DNA from: a virus
Lineage: Duplodnaviria > Caudoviricetes
IMG/VR virus record: IMGVR_UViG_3300032295_001996
Location: 1-31,128 of that record
DNA: 31,128 nucleotides
Direction: 5' to 3' (one strand)
A program made the translations under genes and the position numbers. Under the pieces are notes generated by a model that saw nothing but the letters and a program-made list of their open reading frames with translations, searched no databases and had not been told where the DNA came from. Shown one piece after another: positions 2,254 through 18,884 of the stretch; positions within the stretch are counted from its first letter, which is position 1; the number at the start of each line of letters is the position of its first letter.

Positions 2254-2759
2254 AACGCGGCAAAACCTTCCCGTGCGTTAGCCTTCAGCAACTCAATACG
2301 ACTTCTGAGCTTTGGTTGTATCTCAGCTTCGGTAAGCCCGGCCAACTGTCCCGGTAGGTCACCAACTAACGCATCAAGTTCGGAGCACCAGACGGCCACC
2401 ACGCGGGTAGCGGTTTCTCGCATCTCGTCGGCCAGCACGAGCTCGCCTTTTTCGCGTTTGATTATAAGGTCGAGGCGTTCGATCTCCTTTCTGAGTTTTG
2501 CCGTGCGAGTCTCTTGAAAGCCTGCGGCCTGTGAAATTACGACATCAGCTGTCGGCTTTTCCTGTTTTTGAGCCAGTGCAGGTTCTGGCGTTGCCGGTTT
2601 TTGCGGCGGTATAACCACACGCCCGGCAGAGTGCACTGCGCGCCACTCTTCAATCTTTTCCCAACTCCAGCCGCGATTCAGCCCTCGCTTTTCCCAACCT
2701 TGAACGGCTCCACGGGAAACGCCATAGCGCTCGGCAATCTCTTTGTGACTGTATGCCAT
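2250..2759 (-). CDS. terS: Terminase small subunit (Nu1-like), 169 aa
   Basis: N-terminal HTH (SHKEIAERYGVSRGAVQGWEKRG), coiled coil with EKGELV; overlaps the terL start. Confidence 0.85.
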   Translation of the reverse strand: MAYSHKEIAERYGVSRGAVQGWEKRGLNRGWSWEKIEEWRAVHSAGRVVIPPQKPATPEPALAQKQEKPTADVVISQAAGFQETRTAKLRKEIERLDLIIKREKGELVLADEMRETATRVVAVWCSELDALVGDLPGQLAGLTEAEIQPKLRSRIELLKANAREGFAAL

Positions 2760-2760
2760 G

Positions 2761-2940
2761 GGTATTTTTTGCCTGTATTATCAATAATACAGCAAGAAAA
2801 TACAGTCCAAGATACAACCGCATGGCAGTTTTTGCCTGTAGATAGGGCATTTTTTGCCGATTGCACAAAAAAGCAGCAGACGTCCCTGCCTTCACCCCGA
2901 CGAAAAGCCACTCTAGGAGACTCCCTAGTGGGGGGAGTGG
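2761..2940. other. Candidate cos/packaging region: three GGYA-N5-TGCC dyads (2761, 2824, 2846), 20-bp palindrome (2773-2792), dyad CTAGG-N6-CCTAG (2913-2928)
   Basis: Repeats read directly. Position upstream of terS matches the lambda cosN-cosB-Nu1 layout (inference). Confidence 0.55.
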
Positions 2941-2992
2941 GCAAAATTGGGCCAAAGACATACCCCCCTTCATGGCCCAACTTTTTTAGGGC

Positions 2993-3038
2993 AAAAGAAG
3001 CCCCCGGTTGGTGCGCTTAAATCAGAGGCGTCCGGGGG
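2993..3038 (-). terminator. Probable terminator closing the early region
   Basis: - strand CCCCCGG...CCGGGGG stem followed by CTTCTTTT; loop is long. Confidence 0.45.
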
Positions 3039-3093
3039 TCGATTGCCGATACGATCGCACAATCTTGCGGTTAGTCTAGCATCATCTGTTAGA

Positions 3094-3429
3094 TCATCCA
3101 AGCATAGCCTTGCTGGCCTGCTTCGCCGCGTACTCAACAGCCTGGTGTGATACCCCCAGTGATGCCGCTGCCTGGCTCATGTCATCAAAGCCAGTCAAGT
3201 GCCCAAGCCCTGTACCGAATGCCATACCCACAATCCTTAACCGCATGTTGCTGCGTGCTGTTGCATCCAATAGCCAACTCAAGATGCGGACGATGGCGAC
3301 GCCCCCGGACGTCTGCCCATGTGCCCGGCAGCCTTTGACGTACCAGCGCCACACGTCCTCGGCTTGGTCGTGCGTTAGTCCTAGGTCAAGCAGGTCGTCA
3401 ATACCTGCGGCATAGTCTGGCTCGGTCAT
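3094..3429 (-). CDS. Protein with C-terminal sigma-region-4-like HTH (candidate late regulator), 111 aa
   Basis: MSQAAASLGVSHQAVEYAAKQA HTH pattern; last early gene before terS. ATG 3429 is preferred over 3597 because the upstream DNA is a structured repeat region. Confidence 0.6.
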   Translation of the reverse strand: MTEPDYAAGIDDLLDLGLTHDQAEDVWRWYVKGCRAHGQTSGGVAIVRILSWLLDATARSNMRLRIVGMAFGTGLGHLTGFDDMSQAAASLGVSHQAVEYAAKQASKAMLG

Positions 3430-3437
3430 TGAAAAAG

Positions 3438-3658
3438 GTGCCGGTCTCTCCCGACTGTCACGCCTGACTGTTCGTGGCGTCCTCCATTGGTGCCACTCTT
3501 TTACGACGCGCACCAAAGCGTCAAAACGTGCCGGTCTCTCCCGGATGTCACACCACTTGCCCAACCAGCTTATTTGCCAAATCAGGCCCAGCGGCATGGA
3601 GCCACTGGCAGGTGTCGCTCTCCAATTGGAGGAAGTAATAGTCTCTCCTATTAGTCAC
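3438..3658 (-). ncRNA. Array of three 24-nt GTGAC-N6-GAGAGA-N6-C hairpin units (3635-3658, 3528-3551, 3438-3461)
   Basis: Invariant GTGAC and GAGAGA loop; stems covary (TAATAG/CTATTA, CCGG/CCGG, GTCGG/CCGGC). Confidence 0.65.
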
Positions 3659-3726
3659 GCACGACCGGTCTGGCACACGCCAGTGGTCCCGCAGCGTTCG
3701 CGGAAAAGAACCCATAGGGATTGCCG

Positions 3727-3915
3727 CTAATGAACCATACTTGGCTCGATAGCGTCAAGGTCCTCTTGTTCCCAGCCCTCTCTTCGCATCTGAATTTCCA
3801 GTGCCTCTATGCGCCTATGTGCAGTCCTCAGTTGCCTGGACGTCTCGTTGAGCATGACCTTGAGCGTCTCGATTGCCAAGGCGTGTTCAATACGTTCTGC
3901 GGGTGTGATGCTCAT
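3727..3915 (-). CDS. Hypothetical coiled-coil protein, 62 aa
   Basis: ATGA overlap with the upstream gene; helical sequence. Confidence 0.7.
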   Translation of the reverse strand: MSITPAERIEHALAIETLKVMLNETSRQLRTAHRRIEALEIQMRREGWEQEDLDAIEPSMVH

Positions 3916-4223
3916 TTCCCCTCCTCCCATTTTCCCAACGTCCGCAGAAACGCCTTTGCACGTTGCCTAGCGGTGGCATGTGCAACCTCTATCCACGTAT
4001 CGGCCAGCAAATCAACGTAAGTGTCCCACTCGCCGTTTCTTAGCACTTTTTCAGCTTCATGCATCGCGTTTAGGTCGCCGCAATAATTTGGAATCGGTTT
4101 CCTGTGTGCCTCGTATCGGTCAGGCGGAAAGCCACGAACTCGAAACCCGCCGTTTTCGCACTCGCCAATTTCAGTCCACCCACATGATCCAGCGATCGCC
4201 GCGTCAATTTGTTGGTCGGTCAT
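3912..4223 (-). CDS. Phage ABA-sandwich-like hypothetical protein, 103 aa
   Basis: QIDAAIA...GW...IPNYCGDLNAMHEAE...ATARQRAKAFL pattern; ATGA coupling at both ends. Confidence 0.6.
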   Translation of the reverse strand: MTDQQIDAAIAGSCGWTEIGECENGGFRVRGFPPDRYEAHRKPIPNYCGDLNAMHEAEKVLRNGEWDTYVDLLADTWIEVAHATARQRAKAFLRTLGKWEEGK

Positions 4224-4378
4224 TTTGCAGCCTCCAGTTGATCCATCGGAATTCCCGTCAGCGCGTGCACTTCCCGGCACGCTTCCCCGGCCGAGTACGC
4301 TTCGACGTTCCAGTGCCTAAACGGTAGGAAGTCTGCACTAACCGTGTAGTGCAGTTTTTTAATTGGCGGGAGTGTCAT
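4220..4378 (-). CDS. Hypothetical protein, 52 aa (below ORF-track cutoff)
   Basis: MTLPPIKKLHYTVSADFLPF...QLEAAK fills the gap exactly; its TGA overlaps ATG 4223. Confidence 0.6.
   Translation of the reverse strand: MTLPPIKKLHYTVSADFLPFRHWNVEAYSAGEACREVHALTGIPMDQLEAAK
4333..4360 (+). terminator. Antisense-oriented intrinsic terminator
   Basis: CTGCACTA-ACCGTG-TAGTGCAG-TTTTTT on the + strand. Confidence 0.5.
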
Positions 4379-4379
4379 T

Positions 4380-4652
4380 TTAGCGAGTTTTCAAAAATTT
4401 CTCCACGGCAGCCTGAGTGAACCGCACCGTGCGATGGCCCAACCGAATAGCTTCAAGGTGGCCTAGGCGCGCCCACATTCTTACAGTTTGTTCGCTGACT
4501 TCAAGCTGGTCGGCCACATCGTGGCTTGTAAGCAAAGCGTTGGGGTTAACTTGAAGTCGCTTTGGGTTCGCTTCAAGTTTTCGCTTTTCAAAGTTAGTGC
4601 GCTTTTTTCTGGTCTCGGTTGTGTTGTTGGGTGTGGTCATATTGGTTGGCAT
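4380..4652 (-). CDS. Excisionase/MerR-like winged HTH (HTH_17-like) DNA-binding protein
   Basis: LLTSHDVADQLEVSEQTVRMWARLGHLEAIRLGHRTVRF; start could be 4640. Confidence 0.85.
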   Translation of the reverse strand: MPTNMTTPNNTTETRKKRTNFEKRKLEANPKRLQVNPNALLTSHDVADQLEVSEQTVRMWARLGHLEAIRLGHRTVRFTQAAVEKFLKTR

Positions 4653-4671
4653 AGATACGGCATCAGAAAGC

Positions 4672-4953
4672 CTATTTCTGGCCCCGCGTTAGGTGGTTAA
4701 AGGTTTCGTTCAGTTCCTGTCTGTCTCGCACAAACTGCGCAACGGTGCCCCAACGCACTGAAACGCTGTCAGCGTCGATAAGGTCAAGCATAAGGATTGC
4801 GCTTTGCAATTCGGTCTGGAGCAGGTCAGCACGTTCCCGCAGTGCCTCGATTTGTGAGGGAGTAATGATTTCGCACGCAATGCAAGGCCGGGTTGCTAGT
4901 GCTGCGTTCTCCGTTCGGAGTCGTTCAATTTCTGCCATCAAGTCTGGAATCAT
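4672..4953 (-). CDS. Hypothetical coiled-coil protein with CxxC
   Basis: ORF fits operon packing; CIAC motif. Confidence 0.65.
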   Translation of the reverse strand: MIPDLMAEIERLRTENAALATRPCIACEIITPSQIEALRERADLLQTELQSAILMLDLIDADSVSVRWGTVAQFVRDRQELNETFNHLTRGQK

Positions 4954-4984
4954 TTTAGATAGTCGGTTGATCAGTGCTTTTGCT

Positions 4985-5575
4985 TTAGTCGTTTTCGTGA
5001 AAGTTTGCGTAGAACTCGCGCAGGTAGTCTGGCCCGTCGCCTTGCGGTTCTCTCGAGCCGCTGCTGCGCCTCAAGCGCGAGCAAGCGGGCTCGGTTTCTT
5101 CTTTCTCTGATTTACACGCGGGGGCTTGAGGCCCCGCTGTAAATCTGTTCTCTTTCTTATTAAAGCGTCCAAACTGTGTACTCACGTGCCGTCCACCACG
5201 TGGACTCACGTGCCGTTCATCTGGTGTACTGCCGCGTTCATCTGGTGTACTGCTAATCGAGGTCAAAAAAAAGGCATTTCGGGTTGCGCGAAAGCTTCCA
5301 TTTGAGCCCGAAAACTTGCGGATTAGGCCCGCTTTTTCTAACGCATCTAGTGCCGTTTTGACTGTCCCCCGGGAGCATCCTACGTGCTCGGCTAACTGCT
5401 CATAAGACGCGGAAAAACGTCTTTTGTGCTCGGTCGCTGCTGCACTTTGAAAGTGGGTAAGTGCGCAGTAAATGGCATACGCGTTGATGCCTAATTGCCC
5501 GGCGTGCACGACAACTTCTCGTGCTTGCCAGGCAAACGGGCCTTCATCTTTTGGGTTCTCTGATCGTGGTTTCAT
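4985..5575 (-). CDS. HTH replication initiator-like protein, 196 aa
   Basis: AYAIYCAL...SASYEQLAEHVGCSRGTVKTALDALEKAGLI winged HTH followed by internal DNA repeats, as in lambda O; ATGA overlap with the helicase gene. Confidence 0.75.
   Translation of the reverse strand: MKPRSENPKDEGPFAWQAREVVVHAGQLGINAYAIYCALTHFQSAAATEHKRRFSASYEQLAEHVGCSRGTVKTALDALEKAGLIRKFSGSNGSFRATRNAFFLTSISSTPDERGSTPDERHVSPRGGRHVSTQFGRFNKKENRFTAGPQAPACKSEKEETEPACSRLRRSSGSREPQGDGPDYLREFYANFHEND
5166..5251. repeat. Four 17-bp iterons (CGTYCA-N4-GTGKACT), candidate replication origin
   Basis: Copies at 5166, 5190, 5214 and 5235; AT-rich tract at ~5141-5164. Confidence 0.7.
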
Positions 5576-14792: not shown

Positions 14793-15325
14793 TATAGTTG
14801 CCCTCGGGACAAGTAATCAGCCAAACGCACCGCTTGAGGCGTTTCCTCCTCAATGATTCGCTCATAACACGCGGCACCGTACTGCTTAAAAACCACCGCG
14901 TTATTTCGGAACCATCCCATGTGGTAGCCAGACGCCATAAACGTCACGAGCTTCTCGGTTGCGTCTGCGTCCACGACGTAATTTAGCAATGCAAACTTTT
15001 CCACCCAGTAGCTTTTGGGTTGGCAATTTATGTGCCCGTGCCCGCCTTGCCCCGGAACCGCAGCAGAAAAAAGCACCGTCGGCGCAACGCTTGTGAGTGT
15101 TTTGACAAGCTCATTTGCCCGACTTTCTGGCAAGTGCTCTGCAACCTCAATGCACATTGCAAGATCGTATTTACCCGCGTACTTGTCCGCGAACTCGTCA
15201 GAAAACACGTCCATGACGTCATAAGGGCACCGCGGGTCAAGGTCCACGCCGTCAGCGTGCACGCCCGCCTCTCGGAGTGCCTTCACATAGATCCCAGGGC
15301 CGCAGCCAACGTCTAAAACTTTCAT
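14792..15325 (-). CDS. Class I SAM-dependent methyltransferase, 177 aa
   Basis: VLDVGCGPG, YDLAMCIEVAEHL, FSAAVPGQGGHGHINCQ. Confidence 0.9.
   Translation of the reverse strand: MKVLDVGCGPGIYVKALREAGVHADGVDLDPRCPYDVMDVFSDEFADKYAGKYDLAMCIEVAEHLPESRANELVKTLTSVAPTVLFSAAVPGQGGHGHINCQPKSYWVEKFALLNYVVDADATEKLVTFMASGYHMGWFRNNAVVFKQYGAACYERIIEEETPQAVRLADYLSRGQL
14806..14813 (-). promoter_or_regulatory. Late-gene motif CTTGTCCC, 13 nt before GTG 14792
   Basis: Exact 8-mer inside the 3' end of the methyltransferase gene. Confidence 0.55.
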
Positions 15326-16470
15326 CGGTACAGTGCCGCGTAGTTTAGCCCAAGTCCCATGCCCAGCGGGCGGTTGTGATCCTCGTACCAGCCATTGCCG
15401 TTCCAGATGTCGCGGAAGTCCGCAAATGCGCGCTCGAATTTCGGGCGCACTGCGTCGAGAGAAAAGTTCTGGAAAGCAAACAGTGCCATCTTTGCCCGGT
15501 CAATCCGGTCAATGTTCCGAATTGCGCGCAAGATGTCGCCCATCGTGTTGCAGCGGTAACCGTTCACTCCATCAACGATGTACTCAGTCATTGCGCCGAA
15601 GTCAGTTGTGATCGGAACGCAACCGCTAAGCATCATTTCCACCGCAGTTCCACCAAACGGTTCCCAGTAGGTTGAAAGCAAGAAACCGAACTTGGCTTTT
15701 GCCATCAGTTCCTTCCGCGTCTGGATATCAGCGTAGCCGATAAAGTCCACATGTTGCGGCCATTCCTTGAGCCCAACGCCTTCAGGGCCGCCCTGCCCGG
15801 CCACCTTTAACCGGATTCCAAGTCGTCTGCACGCGTCAATGGCAATATCCAAGCCCTTGTTGACTCCAAGTCGCCCGATAAACAGTGCGTAGTTTTCGCG
15901 CTCTTGAGTTGCGTCAAAGTCTCTTGCGTCAAAGTAGTTTGGCACCACTCGGTGATACCAGTGCGGGTTGCAGTAAGAAACGCCTTCCGTGCCTGCATAG
16001 GCACCTTTAAGTGGATAGGACTCGTAACACCGAAACTGAGCAAAAGCCCATCCTGAGCCAATGCCGGGCTCAACAACGATCAAATCGTTTTCTGCGTTGG
16101 CAATATCGCACGCGGCTTTCGTGCCACTCCAAAATGCGAGCACTAAATCGCCACGCTTCTTGCGTTTTAGAATTTCTGCTCCTGCGTTTGTGTTGAACGT
16201 CTTGTGGGCAAAATCTTCAGAACTGTGTCGGAACTGGTTTTTGCGCCAATCGTAATTTCCGTAAGTTTTTTCAAGCACCTCGTTTGAGGTCACGTTGACA
16301 TGGACGTGCGCAGCAGTCTTCGAGTCTGGGTGCCCGTAATGAATGACGTTGTACTCGGTGCTGCCCTTAAACATTTCACAGAACTTGAGCACTTTTTGCG
16401 TAAAGGCGCACGCTGAGTAATCGGGATGCGTGACTGTGTGCGGAACTGCAAGAGCGTGGATATTCGTCAT
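15322..16470 (-). CDS. GT4 (GT-B) glycosyltransferase, 382 aa
   Basis: FIGRLGVNKG, EPFGGTAVEMMLSGCVPITTDFGA (EX7E), EYIVDGVNGY. Confidence 0.92.
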   Translation of the reverse strand: MTNIHALAVPHTVTHPDYSACAFTQKVLKFCEMFKGSTEYNVIHYGHPDSKTAAHVHVNVTSNEVLEKTYGNYDWRKNQFRHSSEDFAHKTFNTNAGAEILKRKKRGDLVLAFWSGTKAACDIANAENDLIVVEPGIGSGWAFAQFRCYESYPLKGAYAGTEGVSYCNPHWYHRVVPNYFDARDFDATQERENYALFIGRLGVNKGLDIAIDACRRLGIRLKVAGQGGPEGVGLKEWPQHVDFIGYADIQTRKELMAKAKFGFLLSTYWEPFGGTAVEMMLSGCVPITTDFGAMTEYIVDGVNGYRCNTMGDILRAIRNIDRIDRAKMALFAFQNFSLDAVRPKFERAFADFRDIWNGNGWYEDHNRPLGMGLGLNYAALYR

Positions 16471-16483
16471 GCCGGTAAATAGC

Positions 16484-16515
16484 AAAAGGCCCGCAGCCGT
16501 ACAAGACTGCGGGCC
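16484..16515 (-). terminator. Terminator after the fibre gene, overlapping a candidate promoter for the glycosyltransferase
   Basis: GGCCCGCAGTC-TTGTAC-GGCTGCGGGCC-TTTT. Confidence 0.75.
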
Positions 16516-16535
16516 CTTGAATTTGCCAATTTGGT

Positions 16536-18884
16536 TTAGGTGTAAATTGGAATATACCCAGAAACACCATTCCCCGTGGAGATGGCAACCCAATAAAGAG
16601 GCGTAGATGGATTACTCGGAGCAAATCCTACTGAAGTGCTTCCAATTTCCAAAGTCCAACTAAATCCAGTTGCTGAGGTTGGATCGTAATTGGTATTTGT
16701 ATTTACCGAACGATAAACAACACCATTGCGTTGAACAAGATCGTTAGTAATGTATGTGGCTGATGGATTCCATTCTTGGATTCCACTGGAAGCTGGAGCC
16801 CAATTTGTTCCATCAAACTTTAGCACTTGTGTCGCTGATGGCGCCGTCGAAGATACCGCCTGCCCTTGTAGTTTAACAGCGTTAACGTCTGAGGGAACGT
16901 AAGTTTCGCCGTTGTAGACCAAAACTTGTCCTTGTGCATTTGGAGCACTAACTGCAATTCCGGTAATCTTGACGGCGTCAACAAATCCGGACTGCCATTC
17001 GCTGCCATTCCAAACAAGCACATCGGCGTTTGATGGCGCCAGCGTTGCGATGTTTGTGCCCTTAAGCTGCGTCGCATTTGTAGACGGTGCACTGGGCTCC
17101 CATTCGGTGCCGTTATAAACAAGCCCTTCTCCAGAATTTGGAGCAGTAATGGAAATTGCAACGCCCTGCAAAGATGCAGCATTTGTGCTTGCATTAACAG
17201 GTTCCCAGATTGCATTTGCGTCATCCCAACCAAGCACTTGCCCATCGGTTGGTGCAGTGGCCGAAAGATTTCGGCCTTGAAGCGAAGTTGCGTCTCCGCC
17301 TCCACCTCCACCGGATCCAGTTGCACCGGTTGCGCCCTTGGCTCCAGTCACCTGAATTGCCAACACGTCAATGTGTGAACCATCAGCAATGGCCGTTGGG
17401 AAAACGATTTTGCTGTTTTCTGCGGTCGTGCCGGTGATCGAGAAGCCACCGTTGACTTCATCTGGTCGCTGAAACACGCCATCGATATAAACGAGGTATC
17501 CAGACTCGTCGTTCTGAGGGCCATCCCACCCAGAGATAGGGCCGAACTCGGTGAGGCTGCCGTTGCCCGTGAAGACTGGCGAAAGGACACCGCCGCCAAG
17601 TACAGGAGCCTGAGGGCCAGTGGCACCGGTTGCACCGACCTGACCCACTGCACCGGACAATGAAATGGTCCAGGACGAGTAAGTGCCAGAGCCAGCAAGC
17701 ACCGTGGTCACATTAACCACCAACGCGCCAGTTAGGGCGGTGTAGCTTGTAATGGTGCCCTGCATCCGGTTGTTGGCATCGTAAGCAAGGATGATTTGCT
17801 GGCCAACGCTGAGAGCCAGTCCGGTCTGCACGGTCAACGATTTGGATCCAACGGACAACGCAAGCGAGTCGGTAGACTGCGTGGTGTACTTGTCACCAGC
17901 CTGCCCGGTTGCACCCTGCTCGCCGCTGGGTCCGGTTGCACCCTGCACGCCCTGAGGGCCTTGTGGGCCCGTTGCTCCCACTTCCCCGGCAACTCCCTGC
18001 ACGCCCTGAGGGCCCTGCGGGCCGGTTGCGCCCTGCACGCCCTGAATTCCTTGGCTTCCCGTTGCCCCCTGATCCCCCTGAGGTCCGGTAGACCCCGTAA
18101 GTCCCTGAATTCCCTGCGCGCCGCTTGGCCCCTGTGCCCCTTGAGGGCCGGTTGCCCCCTGCGGGCCCGTTGCGCCGTCAACTCCAGCCACGCCTGAAGC
18201 TCCTTGTGCCCCCGAAGCCCCGACAGGGCCCGTCGCGCCGACTGCGCCCACTGCACCAGCAAGATTCACAGTCCAAGCGTTATAAGTGCCGCTGCCTGTG
18301 TTCTGGTTGACATCAACGACCATTGCACCAGTCCCAGAATTATAACTGGTCACAACACCGTGCATATGCTCGGGGTTGTCGGTATGTGAAATTATGACGG
18401 GTTGATTTTGCGTGTAAGCGAGTCCAGTCCCGACAGTTAAATTCTTAGTGCCATTACTGACCGTCAACGAGCTTGTCGAGGTCGTCTGGTATTTGTCCCC
18501 GAGTCCGGTTGCCCCTTGCTGGCCGGTCGCGCCCGTGCTCCCGATATTGCCCTGAGCTCCGCTAGGCCCCGAAGCCCCCTGCGCGCCGCTTGGCCCGGTA
18601 GCGCCCTGAATGCCGCTTGCGCCCACTTCGCCTTGCACTCCCTGAGGGCCCGTTGCTCCGATTTGGCCCTGCACCCCTTGCGGGCCCGTCGCGCCGGTAA
18701 CGCTTGCGCCTGAGGCACCTATGGGCCCAGTAGCGCCTACGTTGCCCTGAATGCCCTGAGGTCCATCATTGCCCGTCGCCCCCTGAATGCCCTGAGGGCC
18801 GGTTGCCCCTTGCTGGCCTTGTAGGGCACTCTGCGCTGCCTGGGAAATCATTCCCAGTTGGATTTTAGTTAGTTCTTGAGACAT
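16536..18884 (-). CDS. Collagen-like tail/virion fibre, 782 aa
   Basis: Long G-X-Y runs (GATGPQ), duplicated globular insert, five ~33-aa repeats, C-terminal WNPSATY...[11 protein letters not shown] (CBM5/12-like). Confidence 0.85.

Follow-up and report, generated by a model that had tools for sequence, protein, structure and literature searches.

What is the array of three related hairpins that fills the gap between two small genes of a tailed-phage genome, and does it act as RNA? The array lies at 3697-3438 on the minus strand of a whole virus record of 31,128 bases, the stretch analyzed here in full and referred to as the window. A scan of 38 ORFs identified terminase, portal, capsid, tail, RecT and helicase genes of lambda-like type; they all lie on the minus strand, and the terminase small subunit is encoded two genes after the array (Table 1). 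A terminator-like hairpin with a long loop and a U run is located at 2993-3038 (-), between the 111-aa ORF and the terminase genes; it shows a weak likeness to abiF (E 1.4), and another locus (L613, 1893-1929) scores 36.4 bits against a threshold of 37. At 15322-16593 (-), after the tail fibre gene, lie an auxiliary gene of glycosyltransferase type and a small gene with likeness to methyltransferases. The window contains neither a tRNA nor an Rfam family.

Table 1. Features of the array and its flanks in the window, and loci in which accompanying motifs were found.
Feature	Position	Strand	Description
Upstream flanking ORF	3727..3930	-	62-67 aa, function unassigned; stop at 3727; kept in relatives
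Unit 1	3635..3697	-	P1 ACGC 3697-3694/GCGU, long hairpin insert, UGAC junction, 6-bp stem, GAGAGA loop
Tail and spacer 1	3618..3634	-	Pyrimidine run, small palindromic hairpin
Unit 2	3528..3615	-	P1 ACACC/GGUGU, two-hairpin insert, UGAC junction, 4-bp stem, GAGAGA loop
Tail and spacer 2	3481..3527	-	U run, hairpins
Unit 3, minimal	3438..3480	-	P1 ACGCC/GGCGU with short loop, UGAC junction, 5-bp stem, GAGAGA loop
Unit 3 tail	3430..3437	-	G-free, runs up to the ATG of the next gene
Downstream flanking ORF	3094..3429	-	111 aa from MTEPDY, function unassigned; ATG at 3429; 13 homologues
Arrays led by the GCYYGCC hairpin			L610-L612, L615, L495, L502, L506, L508
Recurring motifs inside P1			L001, L008, L013, L132, L135, L137, L142, L184
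Recurring motifs just upstream of a unit			L009, L047, L054, L148, L177, L186

A preliminary description of this DNA had reported three minus-strand units with a GAGAGA loop, and their cores were indeed located at 3660-3635, 3553-3528 and 3463-3438; the gaps of 83 and 66 nt given between them are right if counted from GTGAC. A pattern derived from the cores has three matches in the window even with two mismatches allowed, and none of 100 shuffles yielded it. Since this pattern was built from these very copies, the weight of the argument rests on tests outside the window. A covariance model run against the whole genome, with unit 3 belonging to its training set, recovered only the three copies (E <= 6e-6), the next match having an E value of 0.25. 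The upstream partners proposed for the stem P1, starting at 3697, 3615 and 3480, are present, and each unit folded alone forms P1 followed by the GAGAGA hairpin. Stems of six letters had been proposed for all units; pairing is kept in each of them, but six pairs exist in unit 1 only, units 2 and 3 having four and five. The pyrimidine or U runs noted after the units (TTCCTCC, GTTTT and CTTTTT) are likewise real but do not constitute terminator U-tracts. Inserts similar in kind to that of unit 2 recur in relatives. The 306-nt region as a whole folds slightly more stably than shuffles (z -1.73) and, as this margin is small, the case depends on comparison with other genomes.

Such a comparison also bears on whether the region is translated, which would have spoken against a structured RNA. 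A 167-aa ORF runs over units 2 and 3; in the window and in a near-identical twin, 75 open codons precede MTEPDY. In six relatives, just 9-38 unrelated codons precede MTEPDY in the same frame. The array region is therefore not a conserved reading frame, and a protein-coding reading was rejected. No RNA data set was listed as covering 2300-5000 of the window, an outcome that argues neither for nor against transcription.

Viral sequences were scanned with the pattern GYGTGAC-N5-GGAGAGAC-N3-YAC, in which the stem positions are partly free. This gave 121 matches among the 120 viral loci listed, with about 260 stretches estimated in all. Complete pairing at the three free stem positions was seen in 116 of the 121 matches, compared with about 5% expected from an arithmetic estimate, which bears out the claim of compensatory stem changes in a structured RNA. 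Among 62 distinct cores, 181 of 186 stem cells pair, and G-U combinations far outnumber C-A (15 vs. 1), as fits single-stranded RNA made from the sense strand. In species genomes, full pairing was found in 92 of 121 matches, and the remainder look like chance occurrences. An alignment (A1) is paired to 99.4% with double changes in seven of eight pairs, values that are partly circular because its rows were chosen for pairing; the mutual information of P1 is partly circular for the same reason.

Further scans varied the part of the module that was held fixed. A search that fixed stem and loop gives an estimate of about 1,800 stretches for this one stem variant, and a second variant accounts for about 1,300 metagenome stretches. 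A stem-only scan revealed GAC or GGC directly upstream in 113 of the 117 non-redundant matches listed, preceded by U in 103; the loop was GAAAGA in 96 and GAGAGA in 21, making GAAAGA the commonest form. When the loop was left free, it read exactly GARAGA in 68 of 108 cases and was a close variant in nine, the others being unrelated. Searching for P1 only, a strict GAGAGA hairpin came next in 75 of 116 matches, and the other 41 were, judged by eye, mostly loop variants such as GAGAGU and GAGAGUA. A search for homologues had been proposed at the outset; the pattern scans found them in abundance in viral contigs, with covarying stems. The units of the window are copies of a real, abundant, cross-phylum and apparently undescribed phage RNA module.

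According to the titles of species-genome records carrying the pattern, the module occurs in at least eleven phyla, including Pseudomonadota, Bacteroidota, Cyanobacteria, Planctomycetota, Verrucomicrobiota and Bacillota, a count to be read with the reservation that bins can misplace phage contigs. Cultured carriers are mEp390, CS01, Medea1, MinM2, MD18, RcCWillis, Pokken, Alexa and Adzire. Host chromosomes carry few copies: a scan with the model gave one match apiece in five genomes that had been selected because they carry the module, and in one phylum the module was found in three of 151 genomes. A 41-nt query had no match in E. coli genomes; the mEp390 stretch matched 23 of 5,426 of them, mostly outside the core. 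No opposite-strand copies occur in 115 loci, and no partner gene common to the carrier phages was found. Full-text searches of the literature returned no description of the motif or its context, and its strings are absent from the readable parts of the supplements of PMC10690425 and PMC8040213. As candidate-RNA alignments in such supplements were readable only in part, the module may be among the unnamed candidates of the catalogues PMC10690425, PMC8040213 and PMC5737381.

The consensus is [P1]-U-G-R-C-N-[4-6-bp P2]-GARAGA-[P2']-R-H-H-H, in which about 12 bases are invariant. P1 partners were identified for 205 of 213 units, compared with 149 in shuffles. In an independent metagenome set, partners are present in 29 of 36 GAGAGA units (16.5 +/- 3.2 in shuffles) and in 43 of 75 GAAAGA units (22.3 +/- 3.8). 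The signal is weak in the viral GAAAGA set (0.32 vs. 0.18), so P1 may be optional in this class; ensemble folding of the stem-only set gave little P1 signal over shuffles. The third loop base covaries with the nucleotide that precedes the junction U and forms part of the second P1 pair. This base is G in 19 of 20 GAGAGA units and in 17 of 92 GAAAGA units of the viral set (p 1e-10), and in 32 of 37 and 8 of 78, respectively, of the metagenome set (p 7e-16); these p-values ignore relatedness, and the same association was seen in different stem variants and collections. Such covariation suggests that the loop folds back and docks onto P1. Downstream of the stem, 91% of the 227 units have a purine at position +0, and few have G at positions +1 to +3 of the tail (3.5% vs. 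27% farther on). The tail motif RNWUU is found in 53 of 227 units against 25-27, an excess that may only mirror the AU-rich tail.

Most loci (99 of 115) contain a single copy. Seven relatives share both flanking genes, with 72-100% identity in the 111-aa protein; at this orthologous site, one is identical over the array and the other six carry two to four units with different inserts, while three to five units were counted by eye in further relatives. The distinction between a constant handle and a variable insert, made in the preliminary description, holds: in the ACACCU class, 168 different inserts were counted, which range from 3 to about 90 nt and for the most part form one or two hairpins with variable loops. 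The suggestion that the variable part is a targeting payload fared worse, as the window inserts have no significant complement in their own phage genome (best 12 nt, E 0.07). The conserved part is the constant handle and not the insert, which looks less like a guide than like peripheral structure that is tolerated. The arrays probably change by recombination between the constant handles of 20-25 nt, and their earlier interpretation as a processed multi-unit cassette is plausible.

Other structured elements accompany the module. A second conserved hairpin, GCYYGCC ... AAGG ... CCU CAAACC GGCGRGC, leads many arrays, and two recurring motifs, CAGCGUGAG-stem-RGCAACAGCGC and GAGUAGGC-stem, travel with the module; neither the hairpin nor the two motifs have an Rfam match (Table 1). 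In L611, a few bases separate the last unit from a tRNA-like gene (1390-1487, +) whose anticodon arm is enlarged; the gene scores 31.9 bits with the Rfam tRNA model, was missed by ARAGORN, and has a counterpart with a similar start in L057. On a Pedobacter chromosome (L618, 1545-1750, +), two units are followed by a tRNA-like RNA in which a long insertion replaces the anticodon arm, all within a long ORF-poor structured region.

Analysis of the genomic context revealed a preference for tRNA genes of the same orientation. A same-strand tRNA begins 2-13 nt downstream in 17 of 213 units and 2-8 nt past the stem in 27 of 117, with no antisense case in either set; within 25 nt, 11 same-strand tRNAs and one antisense tRNA were counted at 115 loci. 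In MD18, the spacer between two tRNA-Leu genes consists of a unit. The gene upstream of the unit encodes the major capsid protein in 15 and a ssDNA-binding or annealing protein in five of 116 ORFs, and a head-tail adaptor gene lies downstream in 10 of 99 cases; these counts include several related Mu-like phages. A Shine-Dalgarno sequence with an ATG occurs within 45 nt downstream of 41 of 227 units, and some units sit at the end of small ncRNAs. Downstream of the unit, only convergent genes are annotated in RcCWillis and Alexa, the RcCWillis unit adjoining the stop of a convergent integrase gene. An unannotated, ORF-free structured stretch of RcCWillis (L630, 2290-2530), opposite to the strand of the flanking genes, has one unit at its end. 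In mEp390, the leftward leader (L245, 2100-2720) combines two units with a put-like element and a hairpin resembling IsrK and RprA. Long ORFs span 79 of 212 units, 56 of them on the opposite strand, according to a crude ORF picker that is noisy in GC-rich DNA.

These contexts have in common an RNA segment that finishes, on its 3' side, in a sequence-specific hairpin and a short single-stranded tail; next comes a tRNA, a start site or a further unit, or nothing follows. The simplest account, tentatively preferred here, is that the module might be a cis-acting end cap that defines and protects the 3' ends of RNAs cut from long phage transcripts. It would mark the cut sites and shield the 3' end of the upstream piece. 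Docking of loop base 3 on the junction-proximal P1 pairs would produce a compact fold, and 3'-5' exonucleases could be blocked by this fold itself or by a conserved host protein that binds it. RNase P cleavage before tRNAs is established biology and would cut the tail where a tRNA follows; elsewhere, RNase E/Y-type enzymes might do so. Capsid and SSB messages would thereby be kept above those of downstream genes, and array units would be released as stable RNAs of 45-110 nt. The observations underlying this reading are the structure and its covariation, the one-strand bias, the co-orientation with tRNAs, the cross-phylum spread, and the gain, loss and shuffling of units. Against it, a plain hairpin suffices to block exonucleases, so that the roughly 12 invariant bases call for a protein or a tertiary contact as explanation. 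The poor support of P1 in the GAAAGA class also speaks against an end cap, and tandem copies with short spacers would fit a dosage role at least as well.

A dosage role would be expected of a trans-acting decoy or aptamer, in which the handle is the product and binds a conserved host or defence protein, its abundance arising from strong genes, tRNA clusters and arrays. This alternative, possible if on the unlikely side, would explain better than an end cap the two to four units at the orthologous site and the three to five of other relatives. It also agrees with the freely varying inserts, with units that fill tRNA spacers like discrete genes, and with placement behind highly expressed genes. 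However, no target emerged from the analysis, most loci hold one copy, and a cis element would more typically show such strict placement where genes meet. The invariant bases, fixed stem length and tertiary covariation would also fit a small self-cleaving ribozyme of a new class, which would punctuate phage transcripts and have the junction G-R-C and the docked loop as its active site. The contexts match those given for bacterial ribozymes, including Mu-like phage genes, in PMC10085705, and the proximity to phage tRNAs matches that of theta ribozymes in PMC10879173. Yet the minimal core has only about 22-45 nt, P1 has poor support in many of the GAAAGA copies, there is no conserved pseudoknot or multiway junction, and no known ribozyme lies beside units in the loci scanned with Rfam; a ribozyme is rated as rather improbable. 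Similar doubt attaches to antitermination or anti-pausing by a put-like RNA that would act on host RNA polymerase in a factor-independent way. The two adjacent stems recall put, units lie in the leftward early leaders of mEp390 and P7641, the window array precedes the terminator-like hairpin (3038-2993) before the terminase genes, and no dedicated phage protein was found. However, the module has no sequence likeness to HK022 putL and its model no match in HK022 25,000-40,751. Moreover, mEp390 appears, from its sequence, to carry a separate put-like element at pL, units in RcCWillis and Alexa have only convergent genes downstream, and repeats before single tRNAs would be unneeded for processive antitermination.

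Two further readings are very unlikely. A selfish micro-element spreading or recombining as a DNA hairpin (REP/HUH- or attC-like) would account for the conserved tetranucleotide at the hairpin foot and for the gain and loss of units. It is opposed by the absence of opposite-strand copies in the 115 loci, the 15:1 bias of G-U over C-A, the single copy in each of five host genomes and the absence of a transposase family among the 38 window ORFs scanned. A leaky intrinsic terminator that steps expression down is equally hard to credit: a GC-rich hairpin does follow capsid genes and unit 3 passes a terminator scan, but UUU directly after the stem was found in only six of 227 units and five or more U within 8 nt in 42 of 227, tRNAs begin 2-8 nt later, and the loop is sequence-specific. 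Membership among intrinsic terminators was rejected on this scarcity of U-tracts directly after the stem.

A short motif that is kept base for base across many phyla, with no shared phage gene found, must work alone or through a near-universal bacterial machine, and either alternative would be new biology. In its boldest form, in which little confidence is placed, this would mean a new class of very small self-cleaving ribozymes, or an equally universal host-factor aptamer, serving as portable phage punctuation across more than ten phyla; recombining arrays, placed before tRNAs and after capsid genes, would cut transcripts into stable tRNAs, mRNAs and small RNAs. The module bears on the processing of phage tRNA and ncRNA clusters and on the excess of capsid messages over those of their neighbours, and could be of use as a portable RNA insulator or stabilizer. 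Minimal units of 43 nt and cultured carriers (mEp390, MD18, RcCWillis, MinM2, Medea1 and CS01) make it cheap to test.

Comparison with known systems agrees with the earlier statement that no named family applies: in Rfam 15 scans of the units of the window and of four sets of 20 loci, only tRNAs passed the threshold, and a sub-threshold RprA match (E 0.35) overlaps a unit (L314) through a neighbouring hairpin. A nine-letter likeness of the loop to 23S rRNA near A2058 was treated as chance. The boxB of lambdoid nut sites has a 5-bp stem and a purine loop starting with GA, whereas the module has a hexaloop, a 5' UGRC, P1 and no boxA. The proposal of boxB-like antitermination sites was not supported, since sites resembling boxA occur downstream in two of 441 cases and upstream in none (1.95 in shuffles). 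PHROGs and Pfam scans detected no N-like protein, with the proviso that N proteins diverge and small ORFs lack assignment. CsrA/RsmA sponge sites, as in CsrB and RsmY/Z, present an ARGGAU-type GGA fully in the loop. The GGA-type sponge suggested earlier finds no support in this comparison, as the first G of the module's GGA is part of the closing G-C pair and the commonest loop is GAAAGA. Intercistronic stabilizer hairpins and REP/BIME arrays are gene-junction hairpins, often in tandem, that shield upstream RNA from 3' exonucleases; REPs form inverted pairs, number hundreds per host chromosome and have a RAYT partner. In contrast, the module is one-stranded and phage-borne with an invariant loop and junction, and REP/REPIN membership was rejected on the lack of opposite-strand copies in the 115 loci, the one match per genome in five genomes and the three positive genomes of 151 in one phylum.

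In HK022, put is a cis-acting phage RNA that requires no phage protein and consists of two neighbouring stems with a conserved G between them (PMC9378689). The module resembles it in its two adjacent stems with a conserved G at their joint, its presence in some early leaders and the failure to find a dedicated phage protein. It differs in sequence and is not tied to promoters; identity with put was rejected because the 5' AGACG duplex/triplex, the A9-G35/U28/A64 pattern with its U28 bulge, and the internal loop of stem II are absent from the module. Conversely, HK022 putL (NC_002166, numbered as in PMC9378689) contains neither UGAC nor GARAGA. Theta ribozymes, minimal HDV-like ribozymes, are small structured RNAs beside phage tRNA genes for which transcript processing has been proposed; according to PMC10879173, they are placed at the tRNA 3' end and have the HDV double pseudoknot. 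The module lies 2-13 nt before the tRNA 5' end and lacks this nested fold, and membership in the theta or HDV-like class was rejected on both counts. The ncRNA arrays of UG27 reverse transcriptases have units of about 150 nt and need the enzyme, according to bioRxiv 10.64898/2026.09.22.753630, whereas no reverse-transcriptase family was found among the 38 window ORFs. UG27 arrays gain and lose structurally conserved, sequence-diverse units, and the phage arrays of the module likewise gain and lose units of conserved structure and diverse sequence.
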